The notes beneath the pieces are model-generated. The model was not told the DNA's origin, ran no database searches, and was given only the letters and a program-made list of their open reading frames with translations. The translations under genes were made by a program, and so were the position numbers. Shown here piece after piece: positions 7,958-40,897 of a stretch of DNA of 64,000 bases. The DNA comes from Minisyncoccota bacterium (GTDB lineage: Bacteria; Patescibacteriota; Minisyncoccia; Phycocordibacterales; UBA918), in contig JAWKSP010000003.1 of the NCBI GenBank assembly GCA_041389025.1, positions 4,065-68,064 of the forward strand, in the 5' to 3' direction. How positions within the stretch are numbered: the first letter of the stretch is position 1; the number at the start of each line of letters is the position of its first letter.

Positions 7958-10900
7958 ATGAGTATGGAGAAATTTGGAGATAATAAAGGAAATAGATCGG
8001 ATGAAATTGTGAATGCTGAAATTATTTCAGAAGGTAGTGGACCAATTGGTTCTGGTGAGAGAAATGTTGTAAATGAAAATAACAGTCAAGAGAATCCAGA
8101 TAAGACTCAAGAAGCCAGCTCAGAAAAAGAGTCAAGTCTAGAAATCGAAGCGGAGCAACTTGATGATTCGGAGCAAGAGTTTGCTGATGCAGAAGGCAGG
8201 TTTAAAGCAATAAAAGACACTGCTGAGAAACTAAAAAGTGCAGTACCAGAAATATATAGTCATTTAAATTCAGCCGATTCAGCTATCAGTGCTTTTAATA
8301 ATATCAGAGAATCTGATGAAAGAATTAGAAAAAATTATATTTCAAGGTATCTTGGTGTTTTAAACCGAGCTATAAAGTCAATCAATGAATTAATTGATGA
8401 GAATAAAGATAAACTAGAGACGCAAGGTGATCAAGATCAGAAAGAGGAAGAAAAGGTTGGGCGGAATAATGATAGAAAATCAGAAAATAGTAAAGAGAAA
8501 AGTTCTCATCAGAAAGGACTGGTGGAGGCTTATGTTAATAAGTTCAATAAAATTTTTACAAAAAAATTTGGTAATTTAGACACCTTGGATAACACTGACC
8601 GTGGAAATCCAAATGGTCTGCCTGAGTATTTGATTAATGCAATAAAGGCTTTTAAAGCAAAAGAGGCTGAGGTTAAAAAATGGATAGCAAACACTGATTC
8701 TACAACCCAAAATTCAATAGTTGGTGTACAAACTTTACAAAATTTTGTAGCCGAATTAAGGGATTTAAAACATGCTACTCATGAAGCGCATACAAGATAC
8801 ACTAGAGAGAAGCTGGGTCTAGATAATTCAAAAGAGAGTGAAGATCTTGAAGTAAAAAAATCAGAAATTATCTCAGGGTTTAGTTCAGTTGAGTCTAAGT
8901 TTGAAAAAATAGCAGGTAATGCTAAAAGTACAGTTTCAAATGAAGATTTTCAGAAACTTAAGCCCGATGCAAGACGTGTTATTGAAGCGGGTAGAAATGC
9001 TATAAAAGAATTTAATGAATTAGCCAAAACCGAACCGACTGAAGAAAACTTAAATCAGCTAGAAGGAAAAAAGAGAGAGTTAGAATCTGTGATTGCCAGT
9101 TTGGCAAAAAAAGTTGGTGAGATGGAAGGAGTAGAAAAAGATACCGATAAAAAAACAGAAGAAGCTAATGAAGCTGAAAATGAAAAAGGGGATAACGGAA
9201 AAGAAAATAATGAAGATGTAAAATCAAAAAGTGATGATACTCGCACTGAAAATAATGGTGTAGTGGTTGATGTAGAAGAAAAACCAAAAGAAGAAATAAG
9301 TGTTGAGAGTGAAGACGTGGTGGCTGATGAAGAGGTTGTTGAAGGTCTGGAGTTAGATGAGGGTGAAAAAAAAGAAGTTGGAACAAACGAAGAAAAAGAT
9401 AATAAAGAAATTTTTCAAGCTGAAAGAAAGGAATGGTATGAAGCTAGGAAAAAATATTATGAAGATAAAAATGCCTACAATGAAGCGGTAGAGAGTTTTT
9501 ATAAAAATAGAAACTGGTTTGGAAAGGTGGCAGATAGCGCTAAAAGTTTTTTTGGCTTAAAACCAAAATTGCCAGAAGGAATTACTAAACTAGAAAATGA
9601 ATTTAAAAAATCTAGAAGCTCGTACGCTCGTGGTTTGGATTCTGTTTTGAAGAAACGGGCTATAGAAAAAAATACAAATTACGCGGGATTTGACGAAAAG
9701 GACAGTGAAGGTAATTCTACTAAAGCTTCAGACAAGATAAAACAGTTGTTTACGCGTAAGTTTGTTTTGCGTCCAAGTAAAGAAATATTGGATTTACAAA
9801 AAACTGAGATTCTAATTGAAGGACAAGTTGAGGCTGTAGGCAGGGTAATGACTAAGTTGAAAGAAAGTAAATGGTATGTACGAGGTGGAATTATAACTGG
9901 TGCGGCAATATTAGGTACAGCTAGTGGAGGTTTGTTGGCTGGAGGTTTGGCGGCGGCAACGGCTGGTTCTCGTATGGCTATTGGAGTTGGATCTGGTGTA
10001 GCTGCTGGTTGGTTGGCTGATAAAGGAATGAGTTTTAGGGTGAATAAAGCCGAAGCAACAGCTAAGGAGCTTATGGAAGGAAGTAATTTTTCAGTAGCTG
10101 ATATTGATAATTATGAAGAGGAGGTAATGCAAGCCTTACGAAAAGCCAAAGCTGCTCAGAGCCAAAGAACCGCTGCTATAGCAACCGCTGGTTTGGCTGG
10201 TGGTTTGGTTGGTGCCTACAACGCTCCTGATTCTATTGCTGGAGTTACGGATGTGACTGAAAAGGTTTCAGGTGGTTCGGGTGGTGTGGTCGGCGATGTT
10301 GTTTCTGGTGAAGAAATTACAAAAAGTATAAAAGAAGTACTGCACAAAATTGATTTAGGGGAAGATATACCTAATGACACCGCTGGTACCGAAACCGGCA
10401 TGGAGGTGGTTGATGATGCTAAAAAAGTAGTCGAAGAAAGCGTAGAACCGTTGACTAAAGAACCTGTAGAAATAATTAATAAATTAAATGTACCAATTTA
10501 TAACTTAAATGAGGTTGGGCAGTTCTATAACCACTTACATAATATTTCTATTACCGGCGCTGAAGGTTTGGAAGTGGATCAGTTGAGTCAAGTGAAGCAG
10601 TTTATACAACTTAAAGCCAACGACATCTTGTCTGGTGAACCGCACATGACGCCGCAAAAACTCGGTGCAGAATTACAGTCGTTACTGGAGAAGAAGTTTG
10701 GTGAAGAAAGTTGGTGGCAAGAGTCACCGATTGATAAGGTGGATATTGGTAATATAACCAAAGTTGGTTATGATTCTTATGTAGACGTTGACTCTTTAAA
10801 TAAAGATACCGCTCCTATAACCATAGAAACTGAAGTGGGAGAAACTGAAAATATTAGTAGCAATATTTACGAAGTGCAAGCCGGTGATAAGCTTTGGACC

Positions 10901-30527: not shown

Positions 30528-31466
30528 CTAATACACCTCCCGTAACATCTTTACATGTTCTTCATAACTGTTAGAACAATGAAAACCACCATACTGATCA
30601 TGAAAATAAAACAGACAGTCGGTTACGCGAGGATTGAGAGCTGCTACCACCGCTTCTGGCGAAGGGTTGGAAATCGGTATTGGTGGCAGACCGGTATTTT
30701 TATAAGTATTAAAAAGTGAGTCGATATACTTATCGTTAGGATTAACTTTAGGCCACCATGTCGGTTCGTACGGGTTGCTACCACGTACGTACTGTAAGGT
30801 AGCGTCGAGCTGTAGCGGCATATCAATAAAAATCCGGTTCCAAATAATTCCTGAAATGTAACGCATGTCATTAAAATCGTAAGCTTCACGTTCTAGCAAG
30901 GAAGCAATGATCAGTGTCTCCTTTAAAGAAACTTTATTGCTTATATCATCACTATAACGAGCGTATATTTCGTTACTGAATTTTTGATTTAAAGTATCAG
31001 CTAAAGTGGTGGGATTGATATCTTTATCTACTACATAGCGACCTGGAAAAAATTTTCCATCAGCTAGAATTGGTTTATTGTTAGTAATTAATTTAGCAAA
31101 CTTTTCTCTTTCTTCTTTTGACCAGTTTAAAATGTCACCAAAATTTTTTATAATTTCTTCTTTTCTTTCACCAGGGTAAATTACTAGAGTACGACTGCGT
31201 GGTGAAGCTAATAATTGATAAAATTTAGTTTGGGTTAAATCGTTTAAAAGTCGATCAAACCATTGTTCGGGACGATAATCATTTTTGGCTAAATTCAAAT
31301 ATTTGTTAGCAAAATTTTCCACTTCAGGATTTTCAATAATTTCTTTTTTGTCCGGATAAACTCCTAAAGGGAAAGGCTCAACATTGATTTTTGTAACCAA
31401 CCGTTCCTTAGGATTAGGATCTTTTTTTATCGTGAAGGTAGAAAAGGTAAATAAAATCAAAAGCAA
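30528..31466 (-). CDS. mltG: Endolytic murein transglycosylase MltG (YceG-like), copy 1
   Basis: LIIASLLEREA...LQLDATLQY...NPYEPTWWP...GLPPIPISNPSPEAVVAALNP are YceG-family motifs. Confidence 0.8.
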   Translation of the reverse strand: MLLILFTFSTFTIKKDPNPKERLVTKINVEPFPLGVYPDKKEIIENPEVENFANKYLNLAKNDYRPEQWFDRLLNDLTQTKFYQLLASPRSRTLVIYPGERKEEIIKNFGDILNWSKEEREKFAKLITNNKPILADGKFFPGRYVVDKDINPTTLADTLNQKFSNEIYARYSDDISNKVSLKETLIIASLLEREAYDFNDMRYISGIIWNRIFIDMPLQLDATLQYVRGSNPYEPTWWPKVNPNDKYIDSLFNTYKNTGLPPIPISNPSPEAVVAALNPRVTDCLFYFHDQYGGFHCSNSYEEHVKMLREVY

Positions 31467-32522: not shown

Positions 32523-32750
32523 ATGAAACGTCACTATGTATTCGGGAGTCTTTTTGCCGAACCATCACTGATTGAAGGTGTGGGTAGTGTTGTAGATATT
32601 GGAGCTACAATGCAAAGATATAATGAATCAATGTCTGAAAAAGAAGCTGATATTATTGCTCTAAAAAACGATTGGATGGCTGTCGGTGAAGATCTAGATA
32701 AATCCATTAAAAACTATGAGCAAAAAGAAGAAGAATCAAAAAACAGTTAG
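32523..32750 (+). CDS. Small hypothetical ORF
   Basis: 75 aa. It overlaps the next ORF in another frame and coding is uncertain. Confidence 0.25.
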   Translation: MKRHYVFGSLFAEPSLIEGVGSVVDIGATMQRYNESMSEKEADIIALKNDWMAVGEDLDKSIKNYEQKEEESKNS

Positions 32751-33171
32751 ATCTTTACCTCATTCGTTTAATAATTCTCCAAATGAAAGAGGGGTTGTAG
32801 TTCACAAGCAACACGTAAGGCATTCATTTTCTGGCCCATTACCGCATCCTGATGTGTTACATAGATTTGAAGAAGTTTCGCCTGGAGCGGCGGAAAGGAT
32901 TATAAAAATGGCTGAAGAACAATCTTCACACAGACGTAATCTTGAAAAGAAAGTAATTGAGTCTGATATATATCGTTCAAAATGGGGTCAAATACTTGGT
33001 TTTATAATTGCAATTGTTGGTTTGTCTGTATCGGCTGTAATTGGAGTTTTTGGTAATCCGGTGGCAGGAAGTATTATGGGAACAGGAACAGTTGCTGGAC
33101 TGGTTTGGGTTTTTATGTACGGCAGTCGCCTTAAATCTGAAGAATTAAAAGAAAAAAAAGAAGATTTATAG
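32716..33171 (+). CDS. DUF2335-like membrane protein
   Basis: SGPLPHPDVLHRFEEVSPGAAERII followed by two TM helices. The start codon is uncertain. Confidence 0.5.
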   Translation: MSKKKKNQKTVRSLPHSFNNSPNERGVVVHKQHVRHSFSGPLPHPDVLHRFEEVSPGAAERIIKMAEEQSSHRRNLEKKVIESDIYRSKWGQILGFIIAIVGLSVSAVIGVFGNPVAGSIMGTGTVAGLVWVFMYGSRLKSEELKEKKEDL

Positions 33172-33206
33172 TAAATTTATAATTAAAATGTTACGCTAGC
33201 CACCAT

Positions 33207-34304
33207 ATGTCATTATCTGTTGGAATTGTCGGGTTACCAAATGTTGGTAAATCTACTTTATTTACCGCTCTCACTAAAAACGAGGTGCTGATTGCTAATT
33301 ATCCGTTTGCTACGATTGATCCGTCGGTAGGAGTTGTAGCGGTGCCTGATGGGCGATTGGCGACTTTGTCCGCTATTTCTGGTTCATCAGAAATTATTCC
33401 CGCGGTAGTGGAGTTTGTTGATATTGCTGGGTTGGTGCAAGGAGCTTCAGCGGGTGAAGGACTTGGTAATAAATTTTTGGCAAATATCCGCGAAACCGAT
33501 ATGATTGCGGAAGTGGTGCGTATCTTTGAAGATAGTGATGTACATCACGTGGCAGGAGGAGTGAATCCACTTTCTGATATAGAAGTAATTAACCTCGAAC
33601 TGATTTTGGCTGATGCGGAGACAGTGAGTAAAAGATTGGGAAATGTAGAGCGTGACGCGAAGCGAGGTGACAAGGAGGCGGTAATGGAGAAAGAACTTTT
33701 GGCTAGACTTTTGCCACATCTAGAAGCTGGTAAACTGGCTAACTCGTTTGAAATGTCAGATGATGAAAAAAAGATTGTCAGACACTTGCATCTTTTAACC
33801 ATGAAGCCTTTCTTGTATGTTTGCAACAAAAAGACCGATGCTTTTAACTTGGATGAACAAAATGATGACCGATGGCAAGATCTCTTAAATTTTTTCGAGA
33901 CAACCGGAGCGGAGTATGTGGTGGTGGATGCCGGAATGGAGCATGAACTTCGTGACATGTCAGAAGAAGAAAAGAATGATTTTCGTCGTGAGTATGGTGC
34001 GCAAGATAGTGGGGTAGAGAGTCTGATTCGTGCTTGTTATCACCGACTTGGTCTCATGAGTTACTTCACGACTGGTGAGAAAGAAACCAGAGCTTGGACA
34101 GTACCAATCGGCTCTTTGGGGCCAAAAGCAGCAGCGGCTATCCATACTGACTTTGAGAAAAAATACATCCGGGCGCAAGTAGTGACTTTTGATGATTTAG
34201 TACAGGCAGGCTCGCTCGCTAAAGCTCGTGAACAAGGCAAACTTCGTACTGAAGGGAAGGAGTATGTGGTACAAGATGGAGATGTGATTGAATTTTTGAT
34301 ATAA
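33207..34304 (+). CDS. ychF: Ribosome-binding ATPase YchF (Obg-family)
   Basis: G1 motif GIVGLPNVGKSTLF plus a TGS C-terminal domain. Confidence 0.9.
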   Translation: MSLSVGIVGLPNVGKSTLFTALTKNEVLIANYPFATIDPSVGVVAVPDGRLATLSAISGSSEIIPAVVEFVDIAGLVQGASAGEGLGNKFLANIRETDMIAEVVRIFEDSDVHHVAGGVNPLSDIEVINLELILADAETVSKRLGNVERDAKRGDKEAVMEKELLARLLPHLEAGKLANSFEMSDDEKKIVRHLHLLTMKPFLYVCNKKTDAFNLDEQNDDRWQDLLNFFETTGAEYVVVDAGMEHELRDMSEEEKNDFRREYGAQDSGVESLIRACYHRLGLMSYFTTGEKETRAWTVPIGSLGPKAAAAIHTDFEKKYIRAQVVTFDDLVQAGSLAKAREQGKLRTEGKEYVVQDGDVIEFLI

Positions 34305-34359
34305 GACGATTTATAGATCACTTTACTGGCTCCTTTGCTGTTATACTAAACTAATAATT

Positions 34360-35097
34360 ATGAACACGGAAATTTTGGTATATATACTACTTGGCTTTTC
34401 CTCGTTCTTTTTTGTGGTTGTACCAATGTCGGCGGCGGTGGTTTTAAATCCTTTGTTATCACTTATTGTTGAGCCACATACAGCTATAGGTCTAGTGGCG
34501 TTCTTTTTTATGGTGAATAGTTTGGTAAAAACAATAGTCTTCCGAAAAGATGTTTTGCCGAAATATATAAAAAAGATGTTACCAATATCGATAGTTATGG
34601 CAATGATCGGTACTTATGTTGTCGGTCTTGTTTCATCAATGATGCTACTTGTACTGATATTCATTATGTCAGCTTATTTTCTCCTTAAGAAAATATATGA
34701 AATGTACAATGTACAAGAGAGACGTAAAAATATACATGAACCAACTTTAGTGATAGTAAGTATAATTTCAGGTTTTATGCAGGGTACTGGACTTGGTGCG
34801 GGTGGTGCGTTGCGAAAAGTGTATTTATTGTCTGAAAACATTAGCTTGCAGCAAATGCATGGCACAACATCTCTCATAAGTTTCGTTGTTCTGTCCTTTG
34901 CCTTCCTTGTGCGTCTAGAGACAGAACAACTAACTTTAGATCAAGTAATACCTATTGTATACATTGTTCCAATTATAATAGTTGCTACTTTGTTTGGTAA
35001 AAAAGTCTTGGGAAGGTTGTCTAAAAAGACCGCTGATGTAATAGGTATTATAGCTATGCTTCTAATAACGGTCTTTTTAGGGGTTAGTTTGTTTTAA
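34360..35097 (+). CDS. TSUP (TauE/SafE)-family membrane transporter
   Basis: Seven or eight TM helices with the SGFMQGTGLGAGGALRKVYLL Gly-rich motif typical of DUF81/TSUP. Confidence 0.55.
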   Translation: MNTEILVYILLGFSSFFFVVVPMSAAVVLNPLLSLIVEPHTAIGLVAFFFMVNSLVKTIVFRKDVLPKYIKKMLPISIVMAMIGTYVVGLVSSMMLLVLIFIMSAYFLLKKIYEMYNVQERRKNIHEPTLVIVSIISGFMQGTGLGAGGALRKVYLLSENISLQQMHGTTSLISFVVLSFAFLVRLETEQLTLDQVIPIVYIVPIIIVATLFGKKVLGRLSKKTADVIGIIAMLLITVFLGVSLF

Positions 35098-35104
35098 TCT
35101 CTGC

Positions 35105-35161
35105 ACCGAAGGGAAGGAATACGTGGTGCAGGACGGAGACGTGATTGAGTTTTTGATATAA
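35105..35161 (+). repeat. Orphan duplicate of the last 19 codons plus stop of ychF (TEGKEYVVQDGDVIEFLI*), diverged only at synonymous positions
   Basis: Aligns to 34248-34304 with 7 mismatches, all third-codon-position and synonymous. It has no start codon and lies directly after the TSUP gene stop. Confidence 0.8.
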
Positions 35162-35228
35162 ACCACCTTTTGCTTGACAAAACTATTTAAATATGCTATT
35201 ATTTAAATAGTTCAATCATTGAAAAAAG

Positions 35229-35573
35229 GTGAAAAAAATGGTTATTACTATTAATAAAGAAAAAGATAAAGTTACTTTTTATCTATTAATGTCAATTTTT
35301 GCTTTAACTTTAACCGGTATCTTACTGGTAGGAGCAAATATTTTAGCTTTTATTTTAACCTATTCAGGTCCATTCTTGATCCTGGCTTTGATTTTTGCAT
35401 TGCTTCGTGCGGTGTTTATAGTTAAAGGAAGGGCGGTGAGGAGTAAAAATAAAAAGATGAAATACGGAAAATTGGCAAATAGATTTGGTCTTTTATCTAA
35501 GGTATCGCTATACATAACCTTAGCTTTGGTTTCTGTAGCATTGATCCTTACACTTTTTGATTTCATTTTTTAG
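35229..35573 (+). CDS. Small membrane protein (3 TM)
   Basis: 114-aa hydrophobic ORF followed by two terminators. Confidence 0.4.
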   Translation: MKKMVITINKEKDKVTFYLLMSIFALTLTGILLVGANILAFILTYSGPFLILALIFALLRAVFIVKGRAVRSKNKKMKYGKLANRFGLLSKVSLYITLALVSVALILTLFDFIF

Positions 35574-35595
35574 TTTTAGTCCTTTAATCGGGAGA

Positions 35596-35644
35596 GTGCT
35601 ATCTTATACATATCTAGTATGTGCACTAAGATAGCGCTTTTTTA
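35596..35644 (+). terminator. Rho-independent terminator (12-bp stem, large loop)
   Basis: agtgctatctta / taagatagcgct followed by TTTTTT. Confidence 0.55.
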
Positions 35645-35660
35645 ATACTTCATATTACAA

Positions 35661-35696
35661 AAACCTCGCAAATAATTTGCGAGGTTTGTTTTTTTT
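35661..35696 (+). terminator. Rho-independent terminator
   Basis: aaacctcgcaaa-taat-ttgcgaggttt followed by T8. Confidence 0.7.
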
Positions 35697-35780
35697 ATAT
35701 TGTCTAGTAATGGTTAGCAAATTTATGTTACTCTATGATTAAGCGACTTAGTGTTCATTAAATTTTAGAGGAGGTTTATT

Positions 35781-36115: not shown

Positions 36116-36385
36116 TTAACTCAAGTTACTCGGAGGATTCATTTTTTGAACTGGGCTGATTACATTTGGATTCCATTCGGCGGTTATTTCACCATGTTCT
36201 TTTTCGAATTCGGCTAGTTGGTGGGTAAGGTACTGCTTTAGTCTTTTGGCGTGCTGTGGGGTGAGTGAATAAATAGTGCCTTGGTTGCCTGAGCTTAGAG
36301 CCATCACGAAATATTCTGGGGTAAATCCGACATTAATGCTCTCACAAAATAACTTTGGGGCTTTTTTCAAATCTTCTGGTTTCAT
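36116..36385 (-). CDS. DUF3467-like small protein
   Basis: NVGFTPEYFVMALSSGNQGTIYSLTPQHAKRL resembles the DUF3467 pattern. Confidence 0.45.
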   Translation of the reverse strand: MKPEDLKKAPKLFCESINVGFTPEYFVMALSSGNQGTIYSLTPQHAKRLKQYLTHQLAEFEKEHGEITAEWNPNVISPVQKMNPPSNLS

Positions 36386-37765: not shown

Positions 37766-40700
37766 ATGCATAAAAAATTTGATTCAAGCGCCATTGAGAA
37801 AAAGTGGCAGGAAATTTGGGAAGAGGAGGGGATTTATAATGTTGGCGCGCGTGATACCAGTAAAGAGAAAGAATACGTGCTGATCGAGTTTCCTTATCCG
37901 TCTGGGAATCTCCATATAGGACACTGGTATACATATGCAGTGCCTGATATTTATGTGCGTTACCAAAGAATGAATGGCAAGCAAGTCTTGTTCCCGATGG
38001 GGTTTGATGCTTTTGGGTTGCCGGCGGAAAACGCGGCTATTAAGCGGGGACTGGATCCAAAAGGTTGGACTAATGACAACATTGCTTACATGAAAAACCA
38101 GCTGAAGAGCATGGGTAACGCTTTTTCTTGGGATAAAACTACGAGCTCGACCGACCCTGAATACTACAAATGGACCCAGTGGATGTTTACGCAATTTTTT
38201 GAAAACGGGATTGCTTACCGTGGTAAGGGGGTGGTTAACTGGTGTCCAGGGTGTAACACAGTGATTGCTAACGAGCAGGTGGTGGCTGGGAAAGATGGAG
38301 ACGAGTGTGAACGCTGTGGACACAAGATTGAAAAGAAAGAAATGCCACAGTGGATGCTAAAGATCACTGAGTACGCCGACAGACTGGTAGATGACTTGGA
38401 TGAAATTGATTGGCCGGAGCATATCAAAGAAGCGCAAAGGCAGTGGATTGGCAGAAGTAAAGGAGCGGAGATTGATTTTAAACTAAACCTACCGACTTAC
38501 AGCGGACAAGTGCTGTTTGCTTCCAATAATAAAGGAAAGTTGGCGCGTATGCGGAAGCTGGTCGCTGAGACTAGTTTGGATATAACTCTTATCTCATTAG
38601 AAGAAGCGGGAATTACTGATACTGAAGTTGTGGAAGACGAGAACGACTTGGCTTTAAACGCCAAGAAGAAAGCTTTGCACTTTGCTAAGCAGACTGACTT
38701 GCCGGTCTTGGCGGACGACACGGGTTTTTTTGTGGCCGGTGAAGAGCTTGATCCGGTGACGGTAAAGCGGAATGCTTTGGCTGGTATAGATGAAAAGACT
38801 CTTACGATAGAAGAGGTGGGAGAAAAGATGGTGGTGTATTATGCAGAGATTGCAAAAAAACACGGTGGAGAAGTGGAAGCAGAATGGAAGAATGCCCTTT
38901 GCTTAGTGATGGATGGACAAGTATATATGTCAGAAGGGGTACGGCCGGTGATTTTGACTGATGAAGCTGTCGGAAACTATGATCCATATCTGCCGGTGCG
39001 GGCTTTGTATAAAGCCAAAGCGACCGGTAAGCATGCTTTGACTCATAATGAAGAAGAGGAGCTAATGGAACTTCAGCCTATCACTGACGCGATTGAAAGA
39101 GTGTTTGAGCCGAAAGTAACTGTCTTTACCACTCGGCCTGACACTCTTTATGGAGCGACTTATATGGTATTGGCACCAGAACATGCTCTAGTAGAGAAAA
39201 ATAAAGATAGGATTGAAAACTGGAGTGAGGTAGAAGCTTACATAAAGCAAACTAAGCAAAAAGACGAGCAGGACAGACTAGATAACACCAAAGAAAAGAC
39301 CGGAGTGAAGCTCGAGGGGATTATGGCGACCAATCCAGCCAGTGGCGAAGAAATACCAGTCTACATTGCTGACTATGTACTCGGTGGCTACGGTACCGGA
39401 GCTATCATGGCGGTACCGGCGCATGATGAGCGAGACTTTGCTTTTTCTTACAAATATAAAATTTCTAAACCGAAAGAGGTTATAAATATTCAAAAAGAAA
39501 TCAACGAAAAAGTTTTGAATCGTGGAAATGGTGTAGGTGTTGTTCATTGGGATCCTGAGATGATACAAATAACAGATTTGAATACTGGAAAAATATTGGG
39601 ATTTAAGTATAGGTTAGGTGATGTAAGTTGTCATACTTGTTACGGTAAATTAATAAACTCCGCTGAATTTGACGGTATGAACTCCGAAGAAGCAAAATTA
39701 GCTATTACCGAAAAAGTGGGTGGACGGATGACAAATACCTACCGTTTGCGCGATTGGTCTATTGGTCGACAGCGTTATTGGGGGGTACCAATCCCGATTG
39801 TATATGACTCGAGTGGAAAAGCACATGTAGTACCAAAAGAGCATTTACCGTGGACTTTGCCTGAAGATGTGGACTTTACCCCAACTGGTGAGCCACCACT
39901 GGCTAAGAGTGAAGCTTTGAAAAAAAGAACCGAAGAAATCTTTGGTAAAGGTTGGACACCGGAAGTGGAGACTATGGATACGTTTGTGGATTCGTCTTGG
40001 TATTTCTTGCGCTACTTGGATAATAAGAACGATGACGAGCTGTCGTCTTTAGAAAGACAGAAAGAGTGGATGCCGATCGATCTATATTTTGGTGGAGCGG
40101 AGCATACCACTATGCACCTGCTGTACTCACGTTTTTGGCAGAAAGCTTTGTATGACCTAGAGTTGGTGACTGAAAAAGAACCGTACAAGAGGCGAGTGAA
40201 TCGTGGGCTTATCCTTGGTCCCGATGGTAACAAGATGAGTAAGAGTAAAGGAAATGTGATTGATCCGGATGAGCAAGTAGCTAGAGTGGGAGCTGATACG
40301 GTCAAGATGTACCTAGCTTTTATGGGGCCGTATGAGGGAGCTAATTATCCGTTCGATTTAGGGGGAATTGCTGGTATTAGGCGCTTCTTGGAGCGAGTTT
40401 ATGGACTTGATGATCATGTCAAAGACGAAGAAGATGAGAAAACTACCAAACTTCTGCATAAAACTATCAAGAAAGTAAGAGAGGATATTGAGAATTACAA
40501 GTTCAATACCGCGATTAGTGCCATGATGGTGTTTGTAAATCACACTGAAAAGTCTGGTTTGACTAAAGATTCCTACCTGGCTTTCCTTAGACTTATGGCT
40601 CCATTTGCACCGCATGTGACGGATGAGTTGTGGCGACCGGAAGGGAAAGGACAGTCAGTACATATAGATAGTTACCCGGTAGCTGACGAAAAGTTGATGG

Positions 40701-40897
40701 TGGATGATGAGGTGACTCTAGGGGTGCAGATTAACGGCAAGCTCCGCGGTCAGGTGACGATTTCTCCAACGGCTAGTGAAGAAGAAGCTAGAAAAGCGGT
40801 AGAAAGTAATGAGGATCTACAAAAACACTTGGCTGATAAAGAAATTGTTAAATTCATTTATGTGCCAAAGAGGATTGTTAACATAGTGGTGAAGTAG
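37766..40897 (+). CDS. leuS: Leucyl-tRNA synthetase carrying a ~210-aa Ham1/RdgB (ITPase)-like domain inserted just upstream of the CP1 editing domain
   Basis: HIGH (NLHIGHWYTY) and KMSKS (GNKMSKSKGN) motifs. Canonical WIGRS.G.EI.F and TVFTTRPDT flank residues ~241-449, which contain VLFASNNKGKL, LPVLADDTGF and GNYDPY matching RdgB/ITPA motifs. Confidence 0.9.
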   Translation: MHKKFDSSAIEKKWQEIWEEEGIYNVGARDTSKEKEYVLIEFPYPSGNLHIGHWYTYAVPDIYVRYQRMNGKQVLFPMGFDAFGLPAENAAIKRGLDPKGWTNDNIAYMKNQLKSMGNAFSWDKTTSSTDPEYYKWTQWMFTQFFENGIAYRGKGVVNWCPGCNTVIANEQVVAGKDGDECERCGHKIEKKEMPQWMLKITEYADRLVDDLDEIDWPEHIKEAQRQWIGRSKGAEIDFKLNLPTYSGQVLFASNNKGKLARMRKLVAETSLDITLISLEEAGITDTEVVEDENDLALNAKKKALHFAKQTDLPVLADDTGFFVAGEELDPVTVKRNALAGIDEKTLTIEEVGEKMVVYYAEIAKKHGGEVEAEWKNALCLVMDGQVYMSEGVRPVILTDEAVGNYDPYLPVRALYKAKATGKHALTHNEEEELMELQPITDAIERVFEPKVTVFTTRPDTLYGATYMVLAPEHALVEKNKDRIENWSEVEAYIKQTKQKDEQDRLDNTKEKTGVKLEGIMATNPASGEEIPVYIADYVLGGYGTGAIMAVPAHDERDFAFSYKYKISKPKEVINIQKEINEKVLNRGNGVGVVHWDPEMIQITDLNTGKILGFKYRLGDVSCHTCYGKLINSAEFDGMNSEEAKLAITEKVGGRMTNTYRLRDWSIGRQRYWGVPIPIVYDSSGKAHVVPKEHLPWTLPEDVDFTPTGEPPLAKSEALKKRTEEIFGKGWTPEVETMDTFVDSSWYFLRYLDNKNDDELSSLERQKEWMPIDLYFGGAEHTTMHLLYSRFWQKALYDLELVTEKEPYKRRVNRGLILGPDGNKMSKSKGNVIDPDEQVARVGADTVKMYLAFMGPYEGANYPFDLGGIAGIRRFLERVYGLDDHVKDEEDEKTTKLLHKTIKKVREDIENYKFNTAISAMMVFVNHTEKSGLTKDSYLAFLRLMAPFAPHVTDELWRPEGKGQSVHIDSYPVADEKLMVDDEVTLGVQINGKLRGQVTISPTASEEEARKAVESNEDLQKHLADKEIVKFIYVPKRIVNIVVK

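Follow-up and report, generated by a model that had tools for sequence, protein, structure and literature searches.

Why the 3′ end of ychF, the gene for the redox-regulated ATPase YchF, should recur immediately behind a neighbouring transporter gene is the question raised by a 64,000-nucleotide stretch of a Minisyncoccota bacterium genome (NCBI GenBank assembly GCA_041389025.1, contig JAWKSP010000003.1, positions 4,065 to 68,064), the whole of which is referred to here as the window. Positions 34248-34304, representing the last 18 sense codons and the stop codon of ychF (copy A), recur at 35105-35161 (copy B), directly after a gene of the TauE/SafE (TSUP) family, and both copies specify the same peptide, TEGKEYVVQDGDVIEFLI, up to the stop. 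This recurrence had been noticed in an original prediction made from the sequence alone, which counted 19 codons plus stop and seven differences, all at silent third positions; the number of sense codons is 18 and eight differences were found over the 57 nt (offsets 2, 14, 17, 23, 26, 29, 35 and 44), and all eight are indeed synonymous third-position changes, each of them a transition, with seven adding G/C to copy B. The chance of at least 49 matches in 57 is approximately 1e-19 per offset pair and approximately 4e-10 across all pairs in the window, and that of eight out of eight changes being silent, if random transitions are assumed, is approximately 1.5e-4; with 57 nt and eight silent differences, both copies would descend from functional ychF alleles. 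The full repeat measures 66 nt (34239-34304 and 35096-35161), its additional 9 nt being a weaker, non-silent match (KLR versus NLC) which overlaps the TAA stop of the TSUP open reading frame (ORF), and the stop codon is precisely where the two copies cease to be alike. Relative to the TSUP ORF, copy B is in frame +1, and its own frame contains no start codon. The explanation we favour, with a probability of roughly 0.6 for the statement as a whole, is that the end of ychF serves as a docking site for small gene cassettes which are exchanged by a site-specific recombinase encoded elsewhere.

Codon usage suggests that copy A is native-like and copy B foreign-looking. The G+C content at third codon positions (GC3) is 0.33 in copy A as compared to 0.37 for ychF as a whole, and in copy B it is 0.67, a value that just 2% of 18-codon segments of ychF attain in this genome of 37% G+C. 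The comparison of composition with the flanks that had been proposed for the intervening DNA gave a GC3 of 0.32 for the TSUP gene, which is host-like, so that any donor was probably a related organism. The last 21 nt of the repeat occur three times in the window at up to three mismatches, against 0.05 expected; the third occurrence (GTTACTGAATTTTTGATTTAA, three mismatches, 30972-30992 on the plus strand, inside a YceG/MltG-like gene of the minus strand) is probably a chance match.

Comparison with a separate metagenome-assembled genome (MAG), locus L082 (GCA_020632175.1, Ca. Nomurabacteria), which has the same layout of ychF, spacer, TSUP gene and copy B, established the extent of the unit between the copies. 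The spacer is 100% identical between the two genomes and the TSUP gene 99.3% identical (5 mismatches), which amounts to 99.4% over the 793 nt of 34305-35097, as compared to 84-87% for ychF, 88% for copy A and 86% for copy B, and downstream of copy B there is no homology. Identity of 99.4% in the cassette against 84-88% in its flanks argues that it was recently shared as a discrete unit. Copy B begins with 12 nt (AATCTCTGCACC; AATCTCYGCACC) that go together with the cassette, 11 of 12 being identical to L082, and in a mosaic analysis the tail alleles of window copy A, window copy B and L082 were equidistant with no clear crossover point. Copies A and B of L082 are identical at 55 of 57 positions and share GGC/GGT states that are absent from both window copies; from these shared states, the sole support for it, conversion or a similar process appears to have homogenised the two. 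Gene conversion, which had been offered as an origin of the repeat, did not hold in that role, though it or something similar apparently acted on the copies of L082. The single codon by which the L082 copies differ, TAC versus CAT (8758-8760), involves two changes that turn GTAC into CATG, an odd substitution for so short a divergence time.

The arrangement is not confined to these two genomes. In every fetched ychF locus, further occurrences of the terminal 33 nt of the resident ychF were sought (at least 23 of 33 matches), and 11 were obtained downstream on the same strand, as compared to none downstream on the opposite strand and none upstream on either strand, with approximately 700 kb searched in each case. 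Positive loci made up 11 of 84 of the Patescibacteria type and 0 of 73 from other bacteria, where three of the 11 were reached through homologues of the cargo (L082 via the TSUP protein, L181 and L182 via the Fic protein) and are not a random sample. Nine loci beyond the window and L082, from unrelated samples, have the same architecture. In L018 a Fic-family gene lies between the ychF end and a second copy of 57-66 nt; L013, L019, L035, L044 and L120 carry inserts of 150-740 nt followed by copies of 27-33 nt; L022 has three copies; in L182 the order is ychF, a small ORF with hairpin and short copy, Fic, and a further copy; and L181 has six copies within 4 kb between ychF and leuS, the units between them comprising small ORFs, a Fic gene and a minus-strand membrane ORF, and its long copies bearing 1- and 3-nt deletions. 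Weaker repeat candidates were seen in L133, L114 and L025, and an apparent split of ychF in L044 proved to be a run of N.

The segments between copies range from approximately 150 nt without a clear gene to approximately 1.2 kb with one gene, and the ychF beside them remains full-length in the window (365 aa) and likewise intact in L018, L082, L181 and L182. Many units have a consensus promoter a few bases past the site copy and a terminator hairpin at their end, promoters directly following site copies being found at 35174-35202 in the window and at 861-889 and 2371-2399 in L181. Cassettes on the minus strand are also present, some copies, though not all, are preceded by a hairpin, and most cargo ORFs have no Pfam match. 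A TAA or TAG triplet is kept at the stop position in 18 of the 19 downstream copies. The same cargo takes different places in different genomes: Fic comes first in L018 and second in L181 and L182, and an ORF beginning MKYTI is cassette 1 in L019 and cassette 3 in L181, at 82% nucleotide identity versus 73% for the ychF genes concerned. Similarly, three ORFs unrelated to one another are each followed by a module of hairpin and short copy that is 88-92% identical, in genomes with approximately 78% identity between their ychF genes.

The copies themselves indicate how such units may have been joined to the chromosome. Host specificity was assessed by label permutation for the 19 downstream copies and by exact permutation for the 11 short ones; the last 15 nt match the ychF end of their own host better than those of other hosts (0 of 20000 permutations with all 19 copies; 8 of 5040 with the short copies), as opposed to the first 15 nt, for which there is no host specificity (p = 0.75 and 1.0). 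In the short copies the first 15 nt match one another across hosts at 11.6 of 15 positions versus 8.8 of 15 to their own ychF, and the YchF proteins of the hosts are only 62-89% identical in the pairs measured. The downstream copies are therefore hybrids, with a right arm of host type and a left arm of cassette-family type. At least six independent short copies have the left boundary GAAGAYGG in common, and the switch from cassette to host falls within the same few bases. A displaced end is seen on comparing L018 and L182, whose ychF genes are 84% identical in nucleotide sequence: in L018 the Fic cassette directly follows a ychF ending in ...GAGTTTAGGATTTAA, and in L182, where an extra cassette is inserted before Fic, the copy beside Fic still reads GAGTTTAGGATTTAG and ychF now ends in GAGTTTAGAATCTAG, so that a new gene end arrived with the cassette and the former end was moved outward. 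The pattern is that of the attL and attR junctions which conservative recombination leaves when a site in the chromosome pairs with a similar one on DNA from outside, the point of exchange lying some 15-20 nt before the stop.

Close relatives provide the corresponding sites without the cassette. In L180 (YchF 90% identical) an 89-aa gene directly follows ychF, in L179 (92%) a minus-strand spermine-synthase gene does so, neither having a cassette, and in L002 and L005 the site after ychF is empty; the comparison of relatives that had been called for thus found the TSUP gene lacking after ychF in all four. TSUP homologues of 52-74% identity in other contexts have no flanking repeats; a like footprint was sought around the TSUP genes which follow genes for MscS (L087), an ABC-3 permease (L091) and HU (L093), and was rejected as flanking repeats were absent. 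The view that DNA had been inserted at the 3′ end of a conserved gene and had brought a second copy of that end is borne out by the discrete exchanged unit and the empty sites, and further by the recurrence with other cargo and by the displaced end of L182. What that view did not include is that no integrase is present, that the element is a single gene and that the site is a lineage-wide hotspot for cassettes.

The following sequence of events would account for these observations. The docking site in Paceibacteria would be the last 33-66 nt of ychF, and a cassette with a look-alike of the ychF end at its own 3′ side would recombine with the end of the gene. The cassette would land beside ychF, leaving a hybrid copy of the site on its far side, and ychF would stay intact because its last codons are re-supplied by the cassette. 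Repeated events would push older cassettes outward, giving rise to rows between ychF and leuS. For the window, the two ychF ends would represent attL- and attR-like junctions of a small mobile cassette made up of the 55-nt spacer and the TauE/TSUP gene, copy B being mostly the cassette's own site and copy A mostly native; at an empty site the ychF end would run straight into ACCACCTTTTGCTTGACA, and at a circle or tandem junction the TSUP end and copy B would be followed by GACGATTTATAGATCAC. It is very probable that the repeat delimits a cassette which was exchanged horizontally, at a recurrent hotspot formed by the ychF end. As to whether a dedicated site-specific recombinase performs the exchange, we consider the odds even; as no recombinase gene is found nearby, we infer this step and would place the enzyme elsewhere in the genome. 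A broader formulation, in which Paceibacteria, members of the Candidate Phyla Radiation, possess a hitherto undescribed, integron-like capture platform where self-contained promoter-gene-terminator cassettes with a mimic of the ychF end as their own end dock at the ychF 3′ end and are shuffled by a recombinase encoded elsewhere, is put forward only tentatively.

Several observations weigh against the docking of cassettes by such an enzyme. No tyrosine or serine recombinase gene was detected, either in the 64-kb window or up to 5-6 kb from ychF in approximately 85 Patescibacteria loci, by jackhmmer seeded with XerD, lambda Int, Cre, Hin and gamma-delta resolvase, seeds which did find recombinases in Firmicutes and other non-Patescibacteria loci; there is no integrase family among the top 25 of the 87 Pfam families of the cargo ORFs, and no autonomous element with a ychF-like site was found in IMG/VR or in phage or plasmid collections. 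In the pair formed by the window and L082, both ychF-end copies are less conserved than the 99.4%-identical cassette; after a conservative exchange one arm would be expected to accompany it, and an additional gene conversion in L082 is therefore needed. In L083-86 (YchF 89% and TSUP protein 75% identical) ychF, spacer and TSUP gene stand in the same order with no copy B. The Fic cassette has diverged as much as the ychF of its hosts, which implies that some cassettes are old residents and that not every one has moved recently. Lastly, within another species, L183 and L184, which have an identical YchF protein, differ in a segment of 360-460 nt (L183 6312-6675, L184 6313-6769) that begins approximately 213 nt after ychF at a TTGACA promoter. 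No copy of the ychF end accompanies it, so that the interval varies in a second way which involves no repeats, and with the variable spot 213 nt downstream and lacking repeats the pair was dropped as evidence on mechanism.

Candidate parents and enzymes were considered in turn. For a phage or plasmid bearing the attP site, pattern scans of IMG/VR gave no match other than two complete ychF genes from hosts of high G+C content; with BLAST there was no match among phages, and plasmids gave only chromosomal ychF ends. A dif site served by Xer was rejected, as the GC skew of the window is positive throughout with no switch, so that the locus is not at a replication terminus and a Xer/dif mechanism is unlikely, and as inverted arms like those of dif are lacking from the ychF end; the complete genome CP060229 has its ychF at 875-888 kb of 995 kb. 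A dif-like ATAA-N6-TTAT motif at the junction of copy A and the cassette in the window was dropped on account of its absence from other junctions. The published pneumococcal prophage site lies upstream of ychF and is not comparable. In three unrelated non-Patescibacteria a tyrosine integrase gene is situated immediately upstream of ychF (L098 8807-10087, L055 1-1251 and L155 2-829), and together with the pneumococcal site this indicates that the neighbourhood of ychF attracts integrating elements in other phyla too, there on the 5′ side. In literature searches no report of an attachment site at the 3′ end of ychF was found, and nothing relevant on Patescibacteria with integrons or attachment sites.

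A possible though doubtful alternative requires no dedicated enzyme. DNA taken up from related cells would be integrated by homologous recombination with ychF and a pre-existing downstream copy as arms, the first copy having arisen by an illegitimate, homology-facilitated join, of which the final 33-66 nt of the recipient remained as a scar. It would explain why no recombinase gene is found near any array, and silent-only differences are expected of two orthologous alleles; the ychF end, being conserved across phyla (87.5% nucleotide identity to Neisseria, 87.8% to a Subdoligranulum sequence), would be the best homology available, a double crossover with its right arm in the tail would also yield hybrid copies, and the ychF-leuS interval varies even where repeats are lacking. 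However, the short copies extend over only 33 nt at approximately 70% identity to the host ychF end, and RecA-type exchange normally needs far more homology than this. Illegitimate joins should moreover scatter along the 1.1-kb gene, whereas the left boundary is fixed at GAAGAYGG, and homologous exchange should drag ychF along, whereas the high identity of the window to L082 gives out no more than 12 nt away from the ychF stop.

The remaining explanations are improbable to differing degrees. A local tandem duplication of the ychF end and its neighbouring gene, followed by divergence, deletion and occasional conversion without any mobility, is very unlikely; the shared derived states of the near-identical L082 copies indicate that conversion or recent duplication does occur, and in L083-86 a third lineage has TSUP after ychF, but a copy B free of constraint should change at all codon positions and not, as in the window, at eight of eight silent ones and towards G/C. 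Nor would duplication in place account for a cassette that is 99.4% identical between genomes whose ychF differs by 14%, for the same cassettes at different array positions in different genomes, or for left arms of short copies common to several hosts. We attach very little weight to a function of copy B where it stands, be it as an extension of TSUP through a +1 shift at TTT_TAA_T or as a promoter element for the next gene. The copy does lie in the +1 frame directly after that slippery-looking heptamer, TGATATAA resembles an extended -10 element, a strong promoter-like site follows 12 nt further on, and coding potential is preserved in the window as is the stop triplet elsewhere; yet the copies of other loci follow terminator hairpins or opposite-strand genes and are contiguous with no ORF, for which reason the frameshift was rejected, the L082 copy has a Tyr-to-His change and the long copies of L181 have their deletions, the downstream gene of the window possesses its own full TTGACA-17-TATTAT promoter, and service as a promoter would not keep every change across 57 nt silent. 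The explanation given the least credence is an assembly artefact in which the ychF ends of two strains were stitched around the TSUP gene, as the original prediction had allowed. The source is a MAG, and the independent Logan contig L001 (SRR28338157) begins inside copy A (34271), the join between the ychF body and copy A being outside its cover; this contig is nevertheless 100% identical to the window over 34271-35399 and spans both cassette junctions, the longest exact match between copies A and B, 12 nt, is too short to mislead a k-mer assembler, and L082 with its same layout and the nine further loci from unrelated samples share the architecture, so that a chimera of two strains can be set aside.

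Among known systems, the docking of cassettes at ychF most resembles the cis-mobilizable elements (CIMEs) and microCIMEs of Streptococcus salivarius, decayed integrative elements with att sites still flanking them, which form tandem stacks at the 3′ ends of rpmG, rpsI, fda and rplL, lack recombination genes, and fall into classes of 1.2-13 kb with genes and of 130-220 bp without (PMC7563491). The ychF cassettes are likewise small and devoid of a recombination gene, with direct repeats that correspond to the 3′ end of an intact housekeeping gene, hybrid junctions, no integrase or transfer genes, two size classes and tandem accretion beside the target. The streptococcal CIMEs adjoin integrative and conjugative elements or integrative and mobilizable elements that encode an integrase and are thought to be their source (PMC7563491). 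For the ychF cassettes, in contrast, no autonomous integrase-bearing element at the same att site was found in the window, the approximately 85 Patescibacteria loci, IMG/VR, phages or plasmids; neither ychF as a target nor Patescibacteria as a host phylum has a precedent, many cassettes are complete promoter-ORF-terminator modules, and up to six sites are packed within 4 kb. Tycheposon islands of Prochlorococcus are formed by repeated integration at one tRNA site whereby older elements are pushed outward and partial tRNA copies left behind; they target tRNA or tmRNA genes and carry a tyrosine recombinase and replication genes (bioRxiv 10.1101/2020.12.28.424599). Streamlined genomes with few classical mobile elements, outward displacement and partial target copies as remnants are features shared with the ychF arrays, which differ in having a protein gene as target and no mobility genes.

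Chromosomal integrons consist of an attI anchor, cassettes with attC sites and the integrase IntI, and related sites follow unrelated ORFs, as do the Vibrio cholerae repeats (VCRs) of Vibrio. The ychF arrays also have a fixed anchor and single-gene cassettes in a row, each ending in a site, in an order which varies between genomes, and their hairpin and short-copy module behind unrelated ORFs is comparable to the VCRs. The arrays nevertheless fail every defining integron feature tested: jackhmmer with XerD, lambda Int and Cre found no intI beside the anchor in the window and the Patescibacteria loci; the site copies are direct mimics of coding sequence with neither an internal palindrome nor the GTTRRRY core of attC (RYYYAAC...GTTRRRY); the cassettes carry promoters and terminators of their own and may point either way, as opposed to mostly promoterless cassettes in one orientation read from Pc; and the anchor is the coding end of an essential-type gene. 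The Xer-dependent systems (integrative mobile elements exploiting Xer, IMEX, and dif modules) are no better match, there being neither a location at the terminus nor a 28-bp site with two inverted arms. Target-site duplications made by transposons are identical copies of the recipient's own target and usually 2-15 bp, as compared to the repeat of 57-66 nt with eight silent differences around a cassette diverged by 0.6% from that of L082, and the left arms of the short copies, not being host-derived, further argue against plain target-site duplication. In E. coli, e14 and phage 21 integrate inside the 3′ end of icd and provide a replacement end which differs from the displaced native one mostly at silent positions, the same footprint as that of copies A and B; each of these is, however, a complete element of the prophage type that encodes its integrase, and arrays of mini-cassettes are not formed. 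The window holds a one-cassette instance of a ychF-anchored site recurrent in Paceibacteria, of a known kind in being an att-flanked insertion at a gene 3′ end, and what is new is the target gene, the host phylum, the miniature self-contained cassettes and the absence of a linked recombinase.

The features of the locus are collected in Table 1.

Table 1. Coordinates in the window of the ychF end repeat, the cassette it borders and the surrounding genes.
Feature	Position	Strand	Basis or remark
ychF, 365 aa, redox-regulated ATPase YchF, intact target or anchor	33207-34304	+	ORF; homologues 73-100% identical; Pfam MMR_HSR1, YchF-GTPase_C
Repeat copy A, functional ychF 3′ end, attL-like	34239-34304 (core 34248-34304)	+	GC3; 88% identity to L082 copy
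Cassette body	34305-35095	+	55-nt spacer and most of TauE/SafE (TSUP) ORF
Spacer, 55 nt	34305-34359	+	
TauE/SafE (TSUP) ORF, 245 aa	34360-35097	+	Pfam TauE, E = 1.5e-20
Repeat copy B, non-coding copy of ychF end, attR-like	35096-35161 (core 35105-35161)	+	
Next expression unit, possibly an older cassette	35162-35700	+	
Promoter-like TTGACA-17-TATTAT	35174-35202	+	
Membrane ORF, 114 aa	35229-35573	+	no Pfam match
Terminator-like hairpin	35661-35687		
Conserved 89-aa gene, weak DUF3467 match	36116-36385	-	tblastn synteny, gene tables, Pfam
leuS, conserved outer boundary of the ychF-leuS variable interval	37766-40897	+	synteny in most Paceibacteria loci

No tRNA, tmRNA or other RNA family was found between the two copies with Rfam and ARAGORN, and no recognisable further repeat copy follows the next expression unit. 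The promoter of that unit is overlapped by a 26-nt imperfect inverted repeat at 35168-35225 (77% complementary, 6-nt gap), which is operator-like. Upstream of ychF in the window lie a DUF2335 ORF, a 75-aa ORF and SppA, and the conserved order is sppA, ychF, a variable stretch, the minus-strand 89-aa gene, a further variable stretch and leuS; where the site is empty in relatives, the 89-aa gene stands directly after ychF, and it therefore serves as the marker for the distal edge of the variable interval. The nearest ychF genes are all from Patescibacteria/Paceibacteria MAGs, and the ychF-leuS interval is hypervariable, its 219 ORFs of at least 80 aa forming 128 clusters in which the Pfam domains are highly varied. 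Between sppA and ychF the sequence (32523-33206 in the window) varies as well, with ParA-like genes in L179, a Pro_CA_2 gene in L180 and an extra 2-Hacid_dh gene in L083; across it the window and L082 are 92-100% identical, as compared to 84-87% in the adjoining ychF, so that the upstream side of ychF may also have been exchanged. At the outer boundary, LeuS contains at residues ~242-450, just before the match to the editing domain, an insert of ~208 aa with a Ham1/ITPase-like domain (Pfam Ham1p_like at residues 249-325, E = 6e-12), which is also present in L082 and absent from L002 and L005, where by tblastn residue 241 joins ~450.

Patescibacteria have tiny genomes and very few recognised mobile elements, and for this reason the gain and swapping of accessory genes in these bacteria are poorly understood. 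A docking site in the end of a universal gene would give a concrete and testable route for gene flux in this phylum, for a cargo that includes a transporter, a Fic protein and many small unknown proteins which recur in different genomes and orders. For annotation, short 'pseudogene' fragments of ychF would have to be taken as junction sites and not as products of decay. The ychF-leuS interval across MAGs may be mined as a catalogue of mobile accessory genes, and the 33-nt site could be used as a handle with which to look for the missing recombinase. If the tentative capture platform is true, it would constitute a main route by which these very small genomes gain genes.

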